Shown here in pieces: positions 2,021-23,985 of a stretch of DNA of 24,000 nucleotides. Position numbers and translations under genes: made by a program. Every line of letters starts with the position of its first letter. Within the stretch, counting starts at the first letter, position 1. Location of the stretch: assembly GCA_963767625.1 (NCBI GenBank), contig CAVYFB010000009.1, forward strand, positions 449,310 to 473,309, written 5' to 3'. This DNA is from an uncultured Chloroflexia bacterium (lineage in GTDB: Bacteria > Chloroflexota > Ktedonobacteria > Ktedonobacterales > Ktedonobacteraceae). The notes below the pieces were generated by a model. The model was not told where the DNA came from and did no database searches. It saw only the letters and a list, made by a program, of their open reading frames with translations.

Positions 2021-2506
2021 ATGCAGCAAAAAATAAAAAACATCGCGTTGATTACCGGAGCGGTGCTGGTAATAGTCATAGTGGGGATCATCGTCGTCGG
2101 GGTCACTACTGGACATATGATTGATGTCGTCTACGTTTCGCTGATCATTGTGGCTCTTCTCACCCTGGCAGTGACGGTTTTGCAGATTATTGCAATTGTC
2201 AGGCTTATAGGTACCATTTCGATGGTACGCGACGAGATGAAGCCTTTGCTGGTATCGGTGCAGGAGACGGTTGGCGTGGTCCAGGAGACAGCAAAGAACG
2301 CGAATCAGACGGTGGCTACGATTGGCACTGTGGCTCGCTTCACGAGCGATTTTGCTGTCCAGCCGAGTGTACGTGCAGTCTCCCTTTTAATGGCAGCCCA
2401 ACAGGTGATCCGCGTGTTTATCGGTAAAGGCCATGTCAGGAGTCGTGCTGATCGACGTCGCAAGCAGCAAGTCAATGACCTCCCCCTAGCAGGGGGAGGC
2501 TTGTAG
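2021..2506 (+). CDS. small membrane protein (N-terminal TM helices plus coiled-coil-like tail; DUF948-like architecture)
   Basis: ATG 2021 is preceded by GGAGGAG (2010-2016). The ORF-track start at 1970 is a GTG with no SD. Hydrophobic segments are IALITGAVLVIVIVGIIVVGV and VVYVSLIIVALLTLAVTVLQIIAIV. The last codons and the stop lie inside hairpins at 2479-2526. Confidence 0.6.
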   Translation: MQQKIKNIALITGAVLVIVIVGIIVVGVTTGHMIDVVYVSLIIVALLTLAVTVLQIIAIVRLIGTISMVRDEMKPLLVSVQETVGVVQETAKNANQTVATIGTVARFTSDFAVQPSVRAVSLLMAAQQVIRVFIGKGHVRSRADRRRKQQVNDLPLAGGGL

Positions 2507-2526
2507 GAGCCAGGCTCTTGCAAGCC
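2479..2526 (+). repeat. two adjacent hairpins at the upstream edge of the IscB unit (terminator of the 2021 gene and/or IS left-end structure)
   Basis: CCTCCCCC (2479-2486) pairs with GGGGGAGG (2492-2499) around a 5-nt loop. GGCTTG (2498-2503) pairs with CAAGCC (2521-2526), with an inner GAGC/GCTC stem. The TAG stop of the upstream gene (2504-2506) sits between the arms. Confidence 0.45.
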
Positions 2527-2765
2527 GAATTGACCAGACTCAGCCCTGGAGATCAGCCAGCCGAGCAAGTGTGCGTCTGGCTCATCCGTGACAGGGCTAC
2601 GATACGACGAAGCGTTCCTGTTCGGACTCTGCTGTGCCGCCCCAGCAGCAGACCCTTCAACCGCTGATTTAACCAGCAATGCGGTCAGTTGCCGTGATCA
2701 GCGGAAAGTACCGCGTCGTATCTGTGTCGAGGGGAACACTTGTACTCCGAAAGGAGCCTTACCTG
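2507..2765 (+). ncRNA. candidate IscB omega-RNA (guide plus scaffold); exact 5' end not determinable
   Basis: 259-nt gap directly 5' of iscB on the same strand, which is the canonical omega-RNA position. Nested helices: 2542-2548/2592-2598 enclosing 2551-2560/2577-2586; long-range 2601-2609/2714-2722 (9 bp) enclosing hairpins 2628-2634/2646-2652 and 2661-2668/2697-2704 (8 bp). The 3' end overlaps the iscB SD. Confidence 0.6.
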
Positions 2766-4040
2766 ATGAAGGTCTTTGTCTTGTCCCAGCAGGGGACACT
2801 ACTCATGCCCACCACGCCCAGGAGGGCACGGCTCTGGCTCAAGGCCAAGCGTGCGCGCATGCTCAGCCGCGACCCGTTTACCATCCAGCTGCGCTTTGAG
2901 ACCACTCATTATACCCAACCCGTCACCGTTGGAGTGGATACAGGTTCGCAGACGGTGGGAGTTGCCGCGACGACGGGAGGCTCGGTGGTCTACCAGGCTG
3001 AAGTGCATCTGCGCGATAACATCACGAGCAAGCTGAAAGAGCGCCGACAGTCACGCCGAAATCGGCGGAGTCGCAAAACGCGGTACAGACCGGCACGCTT
3101 TGCCAACCGTCGTCGGCCTTCTGGCTGGCTTGCACCCTCGCTGCGCTCGAAGGCGGAGGCAACCCTCAAGGCCGTGCGTTTTGTCACCACCATCTTACCT
3201 GTCCAGCACATCAAGGTCGAGGTAGCAAGCTTCGACACGCACAAGATGCAGCACCCTGAAATCGCGGGGATGCAGTATCAGCAGGGCGAGTTACAAGGCT
3301 ATCAGGTGCGGGAATATCTGTTGCAAAAGTGGCAAAGGACGTGCATCTATTGTCACAAGAGCGGCATTCCCCTTCAAGTGGAGCATCTTACGCCCAAAGC
3401 CAGGGGAGGATCGGACCGGATCTCCAACCTTGCACTAGCCTGTGAGCCGTGTAATCGGCGCAAAGGCAAGCAGACCGCCACAGAGTTCGGCTACCCAGAG
3501 ATGCAGGCGCAAGCCAGGGTTCCTTTGAGGGATGCTGCCCAGGTCTCGAGTGTGAAGACGGCTCTCGTCTCAGCACTGCGCGAGCAGTTCGGGGTCGAGA
3601 GGATCGTGATCACCTATGGCTATGAGACGAAGTACAAGCGCATCCAGGTGCTTGACCTGCCCAAATCGCATACCAACGATGCCGTGGCCATTGCATGCGG
3701 GATGGGCGAAGCAGTCAAGCCGGGGTCTCTGGTCTATCAGATCCGCTGCGTTGGGCGTGGGAACTACCAATTGTTCAATGGGAAGCGCGGGGAACACCGA
3801 GTCTGGGCACCCAAGAAGCTGCATGGCTGGAAGTTGTATGAACTGGTCGAGGCGAAAGGAGTCAGAGGCTACATCGGTGGGAGACGAGTCAAGGGGGCTT
3901 TTGTCGTCAAGGATATAGCAACAACACAAACCATGCTGGAAGTCACACCGCGCAAACTCCGACGGCTGAATCGCCCAACGCAGGGGTGGATCATTCAGAG
4001 AGAGGAGGAGCGCGCTTCCTCCCTCAGCCTGAAGGCATGA
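2766..4040 (+). CDS. iscB: IscB, OMEGA-family RNA-guided DNA endonuclease (RuvC plus HNH)
   Basis: ATG 2766 with AAGGAG at 2751-2756. Motifs in order: PLMP-type N-terminus GTLLMPTTPRRARLWL; RuvC-I GVDTGS (Asp codon 2937-2939); Arg-rich bridge helix RRQSRRNRRSRKTRYRPARFANRRRP; RuvC-II IKVEVASFD; HNH CIYCHKSGIPLQVEHLTPKARGGSDRISNLALACEPCNRRKG; RuvC-III SHTNDAVAIA; C-terminal GWKLYELVEAKGVRGYIGGRRVKGAFVV segment typical of the TAM-interacting domain. Confidence 0.9.
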   Translation: MKVFVLSQQGTLLMPTTPRRARLWLKAKRARMLSRDPFTIQLRFETTHYTQPVTVGVDTGSQTVGVAATTGGSVVYQAEVHLRDNITSKLKERRQSRRNRRSRKTRYRPARFANRRRPSGWLAPSLRSKAEATLKAVRFVTTILPVQHIKVEVASFDTHKMQHPEIAGMQYQQGELQGYQVREYLLQKWQRTCIYCHKSGIPLQVEHLTPKARGGSDRISNLALACEPCNRRKGKQTATEFGYPEMQAQARVPLRDAAQVSSVKTALVSALREQFGVERIVITYGYETKYKRIQVLDLPKSHTNDAVAIACGMGEAVKPGSLVYQIRCVGRGNYQLFNGKRGEHRVWAPKKLHGWKLYELVEAKGVRGYIGGRRVKGAFVVKDIATTQTMLEVTPRKLRRLNRPTQGWIIQREEERASSLSLKA

Positions 4041-4043
4041 GGG
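4004..4043 (+). repeat. two adjacent hairpins at the downstream edge of the IscB unit (candidate IS right-end structure)
   Basis: GGAGGA (4004-4009) pairs with TCCTCC (4017-4022). CCCTCAGCC (4021-4029) pairs with GGC-A-TGAGGG (4034-4043), with a TGAA loop and one bulge. This second hairpin overlaps the iscB TGA stop (4038-4040). Confidence 0.4.
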
Positions 4044-4061
4044 TACCCAGAAAGGATTTTT

Positions 4062-4622
4062 ATGGATCAACCAAATAACCTGCTTGCCATTTTGGGACAG
4101 ATAGCCGCTTTCATTCTGATCCTTGAACTCCTGGTCTATGTCTTGCTCGCCGTGGTTCTGAATGGGGCATTCGCGATCGCCTTTACCTGGATACGAGAAC
4201 AGACTGAATTACTAAAGAAATTGCGACCAGTGGTTGATAGCGTCAACACAACAACTGAGGCAGCAATCAAGGGAACATTACCTGCTGCGAGTGCCAATGA
4301 TAATAAGATTATGCGAACGGTGGCACAGATTCCTGCTCAGGCCAATGCTATTGAAGGCAAGATTGAGCAGGGAGCGGATCGTGTTGCCAATGTTATGATT
4401 GAGCTTCGCGCTCGCACTGTGATGGTGCAGGGGATAGCCAGGGCGATCTTTTTACCGGGCCTGTCGACCAGGCAACAGCGTTTGCCTGCGCCAAAGAGCC
4501 CCGAGGCAAGGGTGATGCTGGAAGAGCGCTCATCAGAGATAAATACGCCTGCAGAAGCTAGTGATGGCCGTGTAGATCTGGCAGCATCTGGCTCGCAGCC
4601 TGGAAGGTCTACAGGCACATAG
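4062..4622 (+). CDS. small membrane protein (N-terminal TM region plus coiled-coil-like tail), same architecture as the 2021 gene
   Basis: ATG 4062 with AAGGA at 4052-4056. Hydrophobic N-terminus LAILGQIAAFILILELLVYVLLAVVLNGAFAIAF is followed by a low-complexity polar tail. Confidence 0.6.
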   Translation: MDQPNNLLAILGQIAAFILILELLVYVLLAVVLNGAFAIAFTWIREQTELLKKLRPVVDSVNTTTEAAIKGTLPAASANDNKIMRTVAQIPAQANAIEGKIEQGADRVANVMIELRARTVMVQGIARAIFLPGLSTRQQRLPAPKSPEARVMLEERSSEINTPAEASDGRVDLAASGSQPGRSTGT

Positions 4623-6306: not shown

Positions 6307-7095
6307 TCACTTCTTGGTAATTTTGATGAAGATGATTGACAGCTCATACAGACAGGACATCGATACTCCCAGAAAAATGGGACTATAAATGTCGGCTCCT
6401 GGGGTGAGGAACGTTGATGCAATCCACAAACCGATATGAGAGCCTGCACGCTTCCTGACAAGCGTCTGTGAACTGATTATATCAATCTGCGCAAGGAAGG
6501 TGAGGACAAGAGGCAGTTCGAAAACGATGCCAAAGGCAAGCAAGAAAAACGCCACAAAGGTAAAGTAGCTGCCAGCCGTCACCAATTCGGTAAAACTGTC
6601 CGACGCAAATGTCACCAACCACTCGACCGGGTAGCGCAGGACGATGTAGCCCAGTGCAACGCCGGCCGTGAACAGGACAATACCAACTAATATGAAGGGG
6701 ATGGCATATTTCTTCTCTTTTTCAAGCAACCCGGGAGCGATAAATGCCCATGTCTGGTAGAGCACCACCGGCAGAGCGATAATGAAACCCACAGCAATAG
6801 AGATCATGAGAAAGACGGTAAAGCCTTCTGTAATTCCTGTCACAATCGGTTTTCTGCCGAATACATCGGCATTTGCTGGCAGTGGGTATGATAAGAAGTG
6901 GACAATCTGCTCGCGGAAGATGAAAGCGATGATTGCGCCAACCGCGATGGCGATCAAGGATTTGAAGAGACGCCATCGTAGTTCCTCCAGGTGATCGAAC
7001 AACGACATGGCAGACGGGTCGTCTTCTTCCTCTTCCGTGTTGTAGTCATTGATAGAGGTCATACGACTCTGCTGATTTATATTACCTGTTGCCAT
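6307..7095 (-). CDS. tatC: twin-arginine translocase subunit TatC
   Basis: FDHLEELRWRLFKSLIAI signature plus six hydrophobic helices. I prefer the ATG at 7095 (GAGGG SD about 5 nt upstream). The ORF-track start at 7125 would translate through the 7110-7129 palindrome. Confidence 0.9.
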   Translation of the reverse strand: MATGNINQQSRMTSINDYNTEEEEDDPSAMSLFDHLEELRWRLFKSLIAIAVGAIIAFIFREQIVHFLSYPLPANADVFGRKPIVTGITEGFTVFLMISIAVGFIIALPVVLYQTWAFIAPGLLEKEKKYAIPFILVGIVLFTAGVALGYIVLRYPVEWLVTFASDSFTELVTAGSYFTFVAFFLLAFGIVFELPLVLTFLAQIDIISSQTLVRKRAGSHIGLWIASTFLTPGADIYSPIFLGVSMSCLYELSIIFIKITKK

Positions 7096-16764: not shown

Positions 16765-16796
16765 ACCCTCACTCGAGCAGAGGTGAGGGTTTTTTG
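16765..16796 (+). terminator. second intrinsic-terminator-like hairpin in the metX leader
   Basis: ACCCTCAC (16765-16772) pairs with GTGAGGGT (16783-16790), followed by TTTTT. It ends 31 nt before the metX ATG. Confidence 0.65.
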
Positions 16797-16826
16797 TTCC
16801 CATGTTCAGGAAGGAGCGACAAGGCG

Positions 16827-17978
16827 ATGGTTACACAGCTTGAACACAATAGATTGGCCAATACCCCATTCGCCCTGGCAAACCCGGTGTTCACCTATAC
16901 TTTCGACCAACTGTCATTGCAACGGGGAGGACCGTTCGGCCCCATTACGCTTGCTTACGAGACATGGGGAACACTGAATGAAGCAGGTGATAATGCCATC
17001 CTGCTCGTCCACGCGCTAACGGGTAGTTCACATGCGCACGACACTGAATATCCTGACGATCCAAAGGCGGCGTGGTGGAATCCATTGATCGGCCCAGGGC
17101 GGCTATTCGACACCTCGCGCTACTTCGTAATCTGCTCAAATATCCTGGGCGGCTGCTACGGCAGTACCGGTCCATCGACCATCGACCCACGCAGCGGACA
17201 ACCCTATGCCATGCGCTTTCCCGTCATCACTATCCGCGATATGGTGAACGCCCAACGCATGCTGATTGAGCATCTGGGTGTGAGCCAACTGGCCATGGTC
17301 GCTGGTGGTTCGATTGGCGGACAACAAGCGCTGGAGTGGGCGGTAACCTATCCCGACCTGGTGCGCAACGTCGTCGTTGTGGCGGCGACAGCAGCATTGA
17401 CTGCGCAAGCTGTGGCGTTCAGTGAGGTAGGGCGTCAGGCGATCATGGCGGACCCACGTTGGCAAGATGGTGACTATCCGCCAGGACAGGGGCCGGATGC
17501 TGGTCTCTCGATAGCGCGTATGTTGGCGATGATTACCTATCAGAGCGAGGAAGCAATGGAGTTGCGTTTCGCTCGACGCCCTGCCCGTAACAATGTGATT
17601 ACTACACCCAGCGGGGCGGCTGATCTGGGGAGCCGTTTCGACGTGGAGGGCTACCTCTACTATCAGGGCCACGCGTTGGTACAGCGTTTCGATGCCAACA
17701 GTTACCTCTACATTAGCCGTGCAATGGACTTGTACGATGTGAGCGAAGGTTATCCTTCGCTAGAGGCTGCATTGCGGCGCTTGCGTAGCAGAGCGTTGTT
17801 TATCGGTATTCGGTCAGATTTTCTCTTCCCTGCGGTGCGTGTGCGCTGGCTGGTCGACCAGGTACGTTCATTGGGTGGTGTTGCAACCTACGTAGAACTC
17901 GACTCACCGTTTGGTCACGATGCCTTCCTCAAAGAATGGGAGCAGATGACTGAGGCCCTTGGCGTCATTAAGGAATAA
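16827..17978 (+). CDS. metX: homoserine O-acetyltransferase
   Basis: Alpha/beta-hydrolase with nucleophile elbow GGSIGGQQALEWA, C-terminal FGHDAFL, and LVHALTGSSH near the N-terminus. ATG 16827 has AGGAAGGAG at 16808-16816. The ORF-track TTG at 16794 lies inside the terminator T-run. Confidence 0.9.
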   Translation: MVTQLEHNRLANTPFALANPVFTYTFDQLSLQRGGPFGPITLAYETWGTLNEAGDNAILLVHALTGSSHAHDTEYPDDPKAAWWNPLIGPGRLFDTSRYFVICSNILGGCYGSTGPSTIDPRSGQPYAMRFPVITIRDMVNAQRMLIEHLGVSQLAMVAGGSIGGQQALEWAVTYPDLVRNVVVVAATAALTAQAVAFSEVGRQAIMADPRWQDGDYPPGQGPDAGLSIARMLAMITYQSEEAMELRFARRPARNNVITTPSGAADLGSRFDVEGYLYYQGHALVQRFDANSYLYISRAMDLYDVSEGYPSLEAALRRLRSRALFIGIRSDFLFPAVRVRWLVDQVRSLGGVATYVELDSPFGHDAFLKEWEQMTEALGVIKE

Positions 17979-22710: not shown

Positions 22711-23985
22711 ATGGCTGCAGACGTTCATGAGCATGGAGCAGTGCTCATTGCGCATATTGGCACTGGCGAATTGGTTGCCAGAAAATCCTCCGAGGCTTCT
22801 CTCTACCCTGACCCCAGATGTGGCTATTATCAGATCGAAGACGCACGCGAGTCTGAATGTGCCCTGATACTGTTTGCTCGAGATACACTTACGTCTGAAC
22901 GCGTCGTCATGAAAATACTACGTCAGTACAAAGATACTCGCTATAGCTTGGCGACTCTGTATGAGCGACAGCAGTGTCAACTCGAGGCACTGGAACGAAA
23001 CAGAGTATTTACGCCGGAAGTTTATATCGGACTGGCCCGCATTGACTATCTCGATCTACCACAAGGACGTTTCGCCATTGAAGAGATTATCAGGAGTTCT
23101 ACACCTGGAGGCATTAGCCTGTTGGGTCTAGAGCAAGGATTTTTCCCTATCAATGAGATTATCGCCAACCCCACACAAGAAATACTTGATCACGATGCCG
23201 AGTATGCCTTGGCCATGTGCCAATTGCCAGAGGAAAGGCGTCTAGATCGCCTCCTGAGTGAGGAGAGTGAAGATGCTCTTTTAGATTTCATGCACCTATT
23301 GTCTAAATACGTAGCGTATATGCATACTAATCTTGTCAAGCCGCTTGATGTTGACGAAGATGAGACAAAATGGGGCAGTTACGAGCAATTACACTGCAAG
23401 CTCTTGCATAACCTTGGCCTCCTCGACCTAGTGCTGACAACCAGTATACTCGATCAGCATTTCACCTTTGACTTGTCGAAAGATACCCTTCATTGGCTGG
23501 AGGAGATGCTACTTCAAGTATTTACGGAGAGCCGCTATCGCAGCTATTTTGAGCAGAGAGTGCGGGAGCAACGGATTAAGCGTTGTCATGGCGATTTGAA
23601 ATCCCCAAATATCTGGATTCTGCCGCCTGATCAGAGTTGCAATGGGAAGCCTGGTGAGTGTGTCAAAATCCTGGATGCCATTGACTTCAATCCTTCGTAC
23701 AGTAACATCGATACGCTCAGTGATTTTGCTATGCTCGTCATCGACGTTCAGACGCGTACTAAGTCACCCACCCTTGCTGACAAGATGGTAGAGGACTATC
23801 TGGAGCTTACAGATCAAAATAACCAGACAGCTAGGTCAGTGCTCACCTATTATCTTGTTGAAAAGGCCATTGTTGGCGCGGCGATAAGTATCGTCTATGA
23901 TAATTTGGCTGAGCTTGGCCTGAGTCTTCTGGAAATTGCCAGGAAGCGCTTGCAATGTTTGGTAGATGGGAGTACTTTAATCTGA
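22711..23985 (+). CDS. aminoglycoside-phosphotransferase/choline-kinase-fold phosphotransferase-like protein
   Basis: 424 aa. Putative ATP-Lys context RVVMKILRQ, catalytic loop RCHGDLKSPNIWIL (HGDLxxxN) and metal-binding KILDAIDFN. The substrate is unknown. Confidence 0.6.
   Translation: MAADVHEHGAVLIAHIGTGELVARKSSEASLYPDPRCGYYQIEDARESECALILFARDTLTSERVVMKILRQYKDTRYSLATLYERQQCQLEALERNRVFTPEVYIGLARIDYLDLPQGRFAIEEIIRSSTPGGISLLGLEQGFFPINEIIANPTQEILDHDAEYALAMCQLPEERRLDRLLSEESEDALLDFMHLLSKYVAYMHTNLVKPLDVDEDETKWGSYEQLHCKLLHNLGLLDLVLTTSILDQHFTFDLSKDTLHWLEEMLLQVFTESRYRSYFEQRVREQRIKRCHGDLKSPNIWILPPDQSCNGKPGECVKILDAIDFNPSYSNIDTLSDFAMLVIDVQTRTKSPTLADKMVEDYLELTDQNNQTARSVLTYYLVEKAIVGAAISIVYDNLAELGLSLLEIARKRLQCLVDGSTLI

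Follow-up and report, generated by a model that had tools for sequence, protein, structure and literature searches.

A HEARO omega RNA immediately 5' of iscB in a Ktedonobacteria ISC element, with a predicted guide read from the adjoining host gene

The window analysed here, a 24,000-nt stretch of DNA from an uncultured Ktedonobacteraceae bacterium, carries an iscB gene preceded by a leader that an earlier note, made from the letters alone, had outlined at 2507-2765 and proposed as a structured candidate IscB omega RNA with a guide near its 5' end. The locus raises the questions of whether this leader is indeed an omega RNA, where its scaffold ends and its guide begins, and what DNA such a guide would recognize.

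An Rfam scan of the whole window answers the first question directly. HEARO (RF02033) matched positions 2471-2742 of the + strand with 105.6 bits against a gathering score of 83 (E 3.8e-21), and the match covers the full model, positions 1-211, without truncation. No second HEARO was found in the window, even at a relaxed threshold. The same RNA was found 5' of iscB in 10 related loci among 14 genomic loci. HEARO was reportedly linked to IscB, as its omega RNA, in the work of Weinberg et al. and of Altae-Tran et al. in 2021. [quoted passage not shown] On these sequence grounds the leader 5' of iscB is a HEARO/omega RNA, a textbook example of one, with the family membership of both RNA and protein established here. 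By analogy with published homologs, it would be stably expressed, bind IscB and support cleavage that depends on guide and TAM. The earlier note was thus borne out on the nature of the structured leader, by the RF02033 match together with the covariation described below. It was equally right about position and strand, as the RNA (2471-2757) stands immediately 5' of iscB (2766-4040) on the same + strand, and about the 3' end, which reaches the SD and start codon of iscB. Its leader was real but began at the wrong place: the true start is not 2507 but 2471, 36 nt further upstream.

One other Rfam family exceeded its gathering score in the window, the SAM riboswitch (RF00162; 16593-16704, + strand; 79.7 bits vs 44.4), located 5' of an alpha/beta-hydrolase ORF (16794-17978) that is possibly a homoserine O-acetyltransferase. 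Outside the window, a Myxococcales MAG (L010) has two HEARO matches, at 2708-2937 and 6665-6876, 4 kb apart on the same strand, which are probably two elements in tandem.

The scaffold (2471-2757, + strand) begins at the transposon end, GTCAATGACC. Its first helix, P1 (2471-2476/2529-2534), is essentially invariant and closes around two hairpins, H1a (2481-2487/2491-2497) and H1b (2499-2510/2514-2525), both of which show compensatory changes. The earlier note had seen no fold in 2471-2534, a segment that forms this additional three-helix domain. A putative pseudoknot (2537-2541/2724-2728) is followed by P2 (2542-2548/2592-2598), the HEARO stem that was the first helix of the earlier note; the second one (2551-2560/2577-2586) is a lineage-specific extension of P2 within a 43-nt insertion at 2549-2591. 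Then come the long-range stem P3 (2601-2609/2714-2722) and the internal hairpins P4 (2628-2635/2645-2652, first drawn as 2628-2634/2646-2652) and P5 (2661-2669/2696-2704, first drawn as 2661-2668/2697-2704, with an inner stem 2673-2681/2686-2695). A GAAA hairpin at the 3' end (2745-2748/2753-2756) contains the iscB SD and falls outside the Rfam model. As originally drawn, the five helices of the earlier note hold 7/7, 9/10, 9/9, 7/7 and 8/8 standard pairs, 40/41 altogether. The minimum free energy of 2471-2765 is -121.7 kcal/mol (z = -3.7), and none of 200 dinucleotide shuffles was as stable.

Covariation was assessed by projecting the HEARO structure and the five helices onto a MAFFT alignment of 46 non-redundant homologous regions that was not fitted to structure; an 8-sequence version was also made. 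As controls, the 3' partner of each helix was slid by 1-3 columns, and 500 shuffles were made. Standard pairs occupied 90.4% of the cells (34-48% when slid), 59/85 pairs had changed on both sides (31-37 when slid) and 669 cells were compensatory (64-164 when slid); no shuffle matched any of the observed measures. Each of the five helices proposed in the earlier note carried 6-8 compensatory pairs across the 46 loci. The helices thus go beyond chance. The pseudoknot pairs at 4/5 positions in the window, with one U-U mismatch, and family-wide it keeps three pairs with some covariation; its two inner pairs are unpaired in 27-31 of the 46 sequences, a figure that the MAFFT alignment may blur. The 3' GAAA hairpin (2745-2756) is conserved without covariation and is the least covarying helix of all. 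One relative (L008:2925-2990), whose RNA scores below the Rfam threshold, has a 65-nt insertion separating P5 from the 3' strand of the long-range stem.

The gene that follows, iscB (2766-4040, + strand), is intact and encodes a 424-aa RNA-guided nuclease with RRXRR (Pfam, 2.2e-63) and HNH (1e-11) domains. The protein aligns from its first residues to the solved structures of TbaIscB (4.8e-43) and OgeuIscB (6.5e-38), and all its catalytic residues find their counterparts in OgeuIscB: the RuvC-I Asp, the RuvC-II Glu, the HNH His/Asn and the RuvC-III His..Asp. Because this alignment starts at the Met encoded at 2766, the gene begins there and not at the ATG at 2679. The leader holds no credible ORF, as the earlier note had also stated; the only frame that it listed there was the SD-less upstream extension from 2679. 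The SD, AAAGGAG, lies in the loop and 3' arm of the GAAA hairpin, 9 nt before the ATG. In comparison with its ortholog in L029, iscB has a dN/dS of 0.21; with L026, a copy that is 95% identical and inserted elsewhere, the value is 0.34. Compared with the latter, the RNA region differs at 6/295 positions, four of them in hairpin loops, and the CDS at 67/1,265. Purifying selection thus acts on iscB, whose CDS has diverged more than the RNA.

In a subgroup of relatives (e.g., L005:2990-3003, L049, L057, L093; alignment columns about 343-365) iscB begins with ATGGAGCAATCCATC, an inverted repeat in which the TAM sequence ATGGA is joined by its complement TCCAT and which lies within the element, where the omega RNA borders on iscB; the subgroup to which the iscB of the window belongs (ACCTGATGAAGGTC) is without it. 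A further ORF of the window (22711-23985, + strand), which also encodes 424 aa, was ruled out as a second IscB, with no Pfam match and no HEARO upstream, and the equal length is probably coincidental.

The boundary between scaffold and guide was located by comparison of related loci. A first set comprised 14 genomic loci, among them those of Ktedonobacter racemifer and K. robiniae (62-68% protein identity), and a second one 80 more from soil metagenomes (55-97% identity). Upstream conservation drops at 2470/2471 in the 8-sequence and 46-sequence alignments alike, with a sharp start at GTCAATGACC. Across the 46 loci, information content is at most 0.21 bit per column in the 16 columns 5' of G2471 and rises to 2.0 bit from G2471, with 1.6-2.0 bits over G2471 and the next bases. 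The flanks 5' of the scaffold are unrelated among 57 insertion sites, those left once duplicate sites had been removed. Because conservation drops at this point, the guide should be the flank just 5' of 2471, approximately 2455-2470. The predicted guide ACGTCGCAAGCAGCAA (2455-2470, + strand; also written ACGUCGCAAGCAGCAA) is host DNA just outside the element and within the CDS of the upstream gene. Its length of 16 nt is assumed by analogy, presumably as in OgeuIscB, and it might extend to about 24 nt, with a start at ~2447. The HEARO system MG35-1 prefers a 24-nt guide (Goltsman et al., 2022).

This placement departs from the earlier note, which had put the guide at ~2490-2540, a segment that is conserved, covarying scaffold (P1, H1a and H1b). 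The suggestion that the guide may overlap the stop of the upstream gene also falls, as it lies in the CDS, 34 nt before the stop at 2504-2506. So does its assignment to the left end of the insertion sequence: in the nomenclature of Meers et al. [quoted passage not shown] Its codons 1-150 (2021-2470) are native, whereas the omega RNA scaffold supplies its last 11 codons and stop (2471-2506, VNDLPLAGGGL*). Two homologs (P0033 and P0034) end instead in ...RRKQQ followed by 8 other residues, and an element-free locus (L015) reads ...CAGCAG ATGGAAGCAGCCGCCGGAGGTGAGTAA at this gene end. Since the guide lies outside the element, the RNA would come from read-through of the co-oriented upstream gene, which is its likely source of transcription. 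In IscB elements the guide has to be transcribed from beyond the element, and an upstream gene co-oriented with iscB is typical (Meers et al., 2023). Promoter scans for the RNA, including a promoter-like site at 1746-1773, gave results at chance level. Translation of the upstream ORF would continue for 36 nt within the scaffold, across P1, H1a and a portion of H1b, until the TAG at 2504-2506; ribosomes moving along such a read-through RNA would open its 5' domain and could interfere with its folding.

Excising 2471-4061 fuses the two flanking ORFs in frame. The idea that the element splits one host gene was nevertheless rejected: all 42 of 42 homologs are 186-225 aa long and cover one half only, and the syntenic loci have two genes 2 nt apart. 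The flanking proteins are not paralogues either, as BLASTP shows no similarity between them. The in-frame match is a by-product of a 29-nt loss at the site, described below.

At its other end the element (2471-4061, 1,591 bp) abuts ATGGA (4062-4066). This far end (4021-4061, + strand), the left end in TnpA orientation, is recognized by a conserved hairpin and spacing. The sub-terminal imperfect hairpin, CCCTCAGCC-TGAA-GGCATGAGGG (4021-4043), overlaps the iscB stop and is followed by a terminal 18-nt segment, TACCCAGAAAGGATTTTT (4044-4061). The ATGGA (+ strand), taken as the TAM, would be 3' of the target in iscB orientation and consists of the start codon and the next two bases of a host gene (4062-4622). 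A sub-terminal hairpin, then 18-19 nt, then ATG(GA) occur 3' of iscB in all loci, and ATGGA flanks 51/57 of the non-redundant insertion sites. No target duplication was seen, and the two ends, GTCAATGACC and hairpin plus 18 nt, are those of a non-autonomous ISC or IS200-IS605 transposon, which has sub-terminal imperfect hairpins and lacks terminal inverted repeats. The TAM of GstIscB was shown experimentally to be TTCAT (Meers et al., 2023), and ATGGA matches its reverse complement, ATGAA, at 4/5 positions. No TnpA was found in the 24-kb window, and the element could move only by means of one encoded elsewhere, should there be any.

The terminus itself, TACCCAGAAAGGATTTTT, differs from the CGCGCGCATCTGTTC-type terminus of relatives that are 88-95% identical: its last 13 nt are different, and the 3' half of their outer stem is missing. 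A decayed or defective far end was considered and rejected, as a similar terminus, TACCCAGAACGGAGGTTTT|ATGGA after the hairpin, ends a second element in another locus (L040, about 3181-3225). This suggests that ends are exchanged between elements, giving a modular or chimeric end. The version in the window creates an SD-like AAAGGA 5 nt before the ATG of the downstream gene. The stretch AGAAAGGATTTTT was also considered as leftover host DNA and rejected, as it is unlike the empty-site sequence at that position.

The position of the TAM on a host start codon recurs in related loci. At 30/53 determinable sites (~57%), a co-oriented ORF of 100 aa or more starts at the flanking ATG, compared with 58/287 (20%) of the remaining ATGGA sites in these host flanks (Fisher p = 2e-7). 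The sample (loci L001-L105) is metagenomic and partly redundant, and the control ignores which insertions cells tolerate. In reconstructed pre-insertion sequences, 14/22 such frames were closed within 30 codons upstream, compared with 2.8% of controls that were both long and closed. Pfam matches were obtained for 8/10 ORFs tested, several of the domain models beginning near the N-terminus, as in real genes; Dxr, Crp, APH and MFS domains are represented, as well as GNAT, DinB and TPR proteins. At most sites the iscB stop is 21-29 nt upstream of the host ATG. We found no report of an insertion bias toward start codons in the searchable literature; the term start codon is absent from Kapitonov (2016, PMC4810608) and appears in Meers et al. 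(2023) only as a distance reference. This adjacency is a lead rather than a result, and it may be new. We tentatively consider, while thinking it somewhat doubtful, that in the clade of Ktedonobacteria-type IscB the TAM is usually a host start codon plus two bases and that the elements live as promoter traps, provided that selection or targeting, and not TAM composition, accounts for the bias. Such an element could sit exactly between the 5' UTR of a gene and its ATG, so that the host promoter and leader supply transcription and become the guide. The host gene could stay expressed as a cistron after iscB, with the element end providing the SD in the case of the window. If confirmed genome-wide, this would bear on how elements with an external guide secure their transcription and limit the damage to their host.

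What the guide would recognize is suggested by syntenic element-free loci, which were reached by homology search with the flanking proteins. They have the gene order of the window (LytB, 140 aa, 158 aa, 189 aa, MFS, TatC, TatA) and no iscB. Their empty site reads ...ACGTCGCAAGCAGCAG|ATGGAAGCAGCCGCCGGAGGTGAGTAATC|ATGGATCAACC... (L015; L024 similar), so that ACGTCGCAAGCAGCAG|ATGGA offers 15/16 guide bases with ATGGA directly after in both loci. From these sequences, the expected target of the guide is the element-free form of the same locus, a guide match plus ATGGA as the homing model predicts, and precise excision from the window would likewise yield guide plus ATGGA. Within the 24-kb window the 16-mer is unique, and no other target occurs there at up to 3 mismatches.

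The empty sites (L015:4964-5000, L024:1480-1530) also show that the insertion history is not a simple single event, because 29-35 nt between two ATGGA motifs are absent from the window. The missing stretch takes in a spacer as well as the final 8 codons and the stop of the upstream gene; the downstream gene starts at the second ATGGA. To the left of the element stands the sequence that precedes the first ATGGA in the empty sites, and to its right the second ATGGA. The 29 nt could have been lost by deletion between the 5-nt repeats or by recombination of two elements at adjacent sites; recombination between elements at the two neighbouring ATGGA sites would explain both the loss and the odd terminus.

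We are confident that 2471-4061 is a solitary, non-autonomous ISC element of the IS200/IS605 family, made up of IscB and its omega RNA (HEARO) and presumably acting by restorative homing. What the sequences show is the family membership of RNA and protein, the exact point where conservation starts, the covariation of the helices, the ATGGA next to the element, the make-up of the empty site and the purifying selection. A transcript reading through from the upstream host gene would be trimmed to a guide of ~16 nt (2455-2470) and a scaffold of ~290 nt (2471 to about 2757). The scaffold would fold into its covarying, multi-helix, pseudoknotted structure and bind the 424-aa IscB, the omega RNA fold replacing the REC lobe of Cas9. 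The complex would then recognize double-stranded DNA by a 16-nt guide match followed 3' by ATGGA, and would cut it with RuvC and HNH. Such a target would exist only where the element is missing, either at the donor joint after TnpA-mediated excision or in an element-free allele. Cleavage would force recombinational repair from the element-bearing copy, by which the element would be retained or copied in. Transcription, processing, the 16-nt length of the guide, cleavage and homing are modelled here on published homologs.

It could be argued that the insertion is a fixed relic, old and immobile, with no live target in its genome, and that the guide is a historical footprint or has some other role at the level of the host. 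The insertion is indeed old and inherited, because the same junctions are common to L023, L025 and L029, the same insertion in lineages with host flanks 92-100% identical (about 92-94% in L025 and L029). In addition, TnpA is absent from the 24-kb window, the junction departs from a simple insertion by the 29-nt loss, and the far-end terminus is unlike that of the closest IscB relatives. However, iscB has dN/dS values of 0.21-0.34, and the RNA, which has diverged less than the CDS, has changed mostly in loops, all of which argues against a relic. The 95%-identical copy at a different site (L026) implies that the family moved recently, the presence of the same terminus type at the end of another element (L040) speaks against decay, and homing would require no more than IscB, its RNA and an allele free of the element. 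We therefore regard a relic as unlikely and retain restorative homing as the preferred reading.

A second alternative keeps the element and its activity but shifts the junction. ISC elements have been described with 5'-GTCA...ATGG-3' termini and N|ATGA targets, and for the K. racemifer elements the cut was inferred 2 nt further in, at GT|GG (Kapitonov, 2016, PMC4810608). Because of this alternative cut, the position of the junction is certain only to within 2 nt. With a shifted junction, the termini would be 5'-CA...AT-3' and the target GT|GG, which would extend the flank to 2472, give a guide with GU as its last bases and move the start of the TAM to the GG at 4064. GT|GG was derived from three insertions into repeats in K. 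racemifer (Kapitonov, 2016), and GT and AT are invariant either way, so that conservation alone cannot decide. The orthologous sequences of the empty sites read AT|GG at both candidate positions (CAGCAG ATGGAAGC and TAATC ATGGATC), which favours N|ATGGA. Moreover, homologs (P0033) have Met at the first position, the 30 flanking ATGs that are host start codons would, with a shifted junction, all have been GTG before insertion, and the experimentally defined TAM of GstIscB is the full TTCAT (Meers et al., 2023). A shifted junction thus seems unlikely.

Finally, the leader might be only a cis-acting 5' UTR that controls how iscB is translated, for example with the SD sequestered in the 2745-2756 hairpin, and supply no guide in trans. 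The place of AAAGGAG in that hairpin, 9 nt before the ATG, is in its favour. We nevertheless regard this as highly improbable, given that experiments, among them solved complexes of IscB with its RNA, have established the family as the guide RNA of IscB, that a 290-nt covarying and apparently pseudoknotted fold far exceeds what SD control needs, and that this hairpin is the least covarying helix. A regulatory side role of the leader may exist beside its guide function.

The finding itself adds little: this copy joins a well-described family that standard Rfam annotation recognizes directly, so novelty is low and the identification is within reach of routine work. Its class, Ktedonobacteria, reportedly also furnished the first descriptions of IscB elements and the first studies of omega RNAs. 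What is useful here is the revised anatomy, with a predicted guide at 2455-2470, a scaffold from 2471, the TAM ATGGA and an element spanning 2471-4061. This anatomy explains why the upstream ORF ends in element DNA and why the SD of the downstream gene is element DNA.

Compared with the HEARO RNA of RF02033, as seen in the OgeuIscB complex (PDB 7XHT/7UTN), the RNA of the window has the same position, strand and helix order. In both, P1 closes around two hairpins, and there are a long-range stem and a nexus-like hairpin, with a putative pseudoknot in the window; the guide precedes GUCA, and the protein that accompanies the RNA is of the RRXRR+HNH type. RNAs of the Ktedonobacteria type differ from the HEARO model in the 43-nt insertion in P2 (2549-2591) and a longer H1b, which is why a 211-position model gives a 272-nt match. 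As noted by Meers et al. (2023), a conserved 3' hairpin, here over the SD, lies outside the Rfam model.

Similar elements include ISC2-1_KR and other ISC2 transposons of Ktedonobacter racemifer (PMC4810608; KraIscB-1). ISC2-1_KR is from the same host lineage, measures 1,594 bp compared with 1,591 bp and encodes only IscB. Both elements have 5'-GTCA and ATGG-3' ends and sub-terminal hairpins and lack a target duplication, and the K. racemifer IscB proteins (L005, L006) are 64% identical to that of the window. Still, the two elements belong to different families by the criterion of >75% DNA identity of Kapitonov, Makarova and Koonin, and the cut site proposed for ISC2 is GT|GG (Kapitonov, 2016) whereas the empty sites here favour N|ATGGA. 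GstIscB of ISGst5 from Geobacillus stearothermophilus (Meers et al., 2023) is likewise co-oriented with its upstream gene, and the homing model applies to it; its TAM TTCAT (ATGAA in iscB orientation) differs from ATGGA at one position. It is a distant protein.

The same logic is found in the reRNA/omega RNA of TnpB in IS605 and IS607 elements, where the transposon end and its flank are transcribed as the guide and the TAM is the target motif of TnpA. The TnpB RNA, however, has an unrelated fold, is located 3' of or within tnpB and carries a 3' guide with a 5' TAM, and its nuclease has RuvC only.
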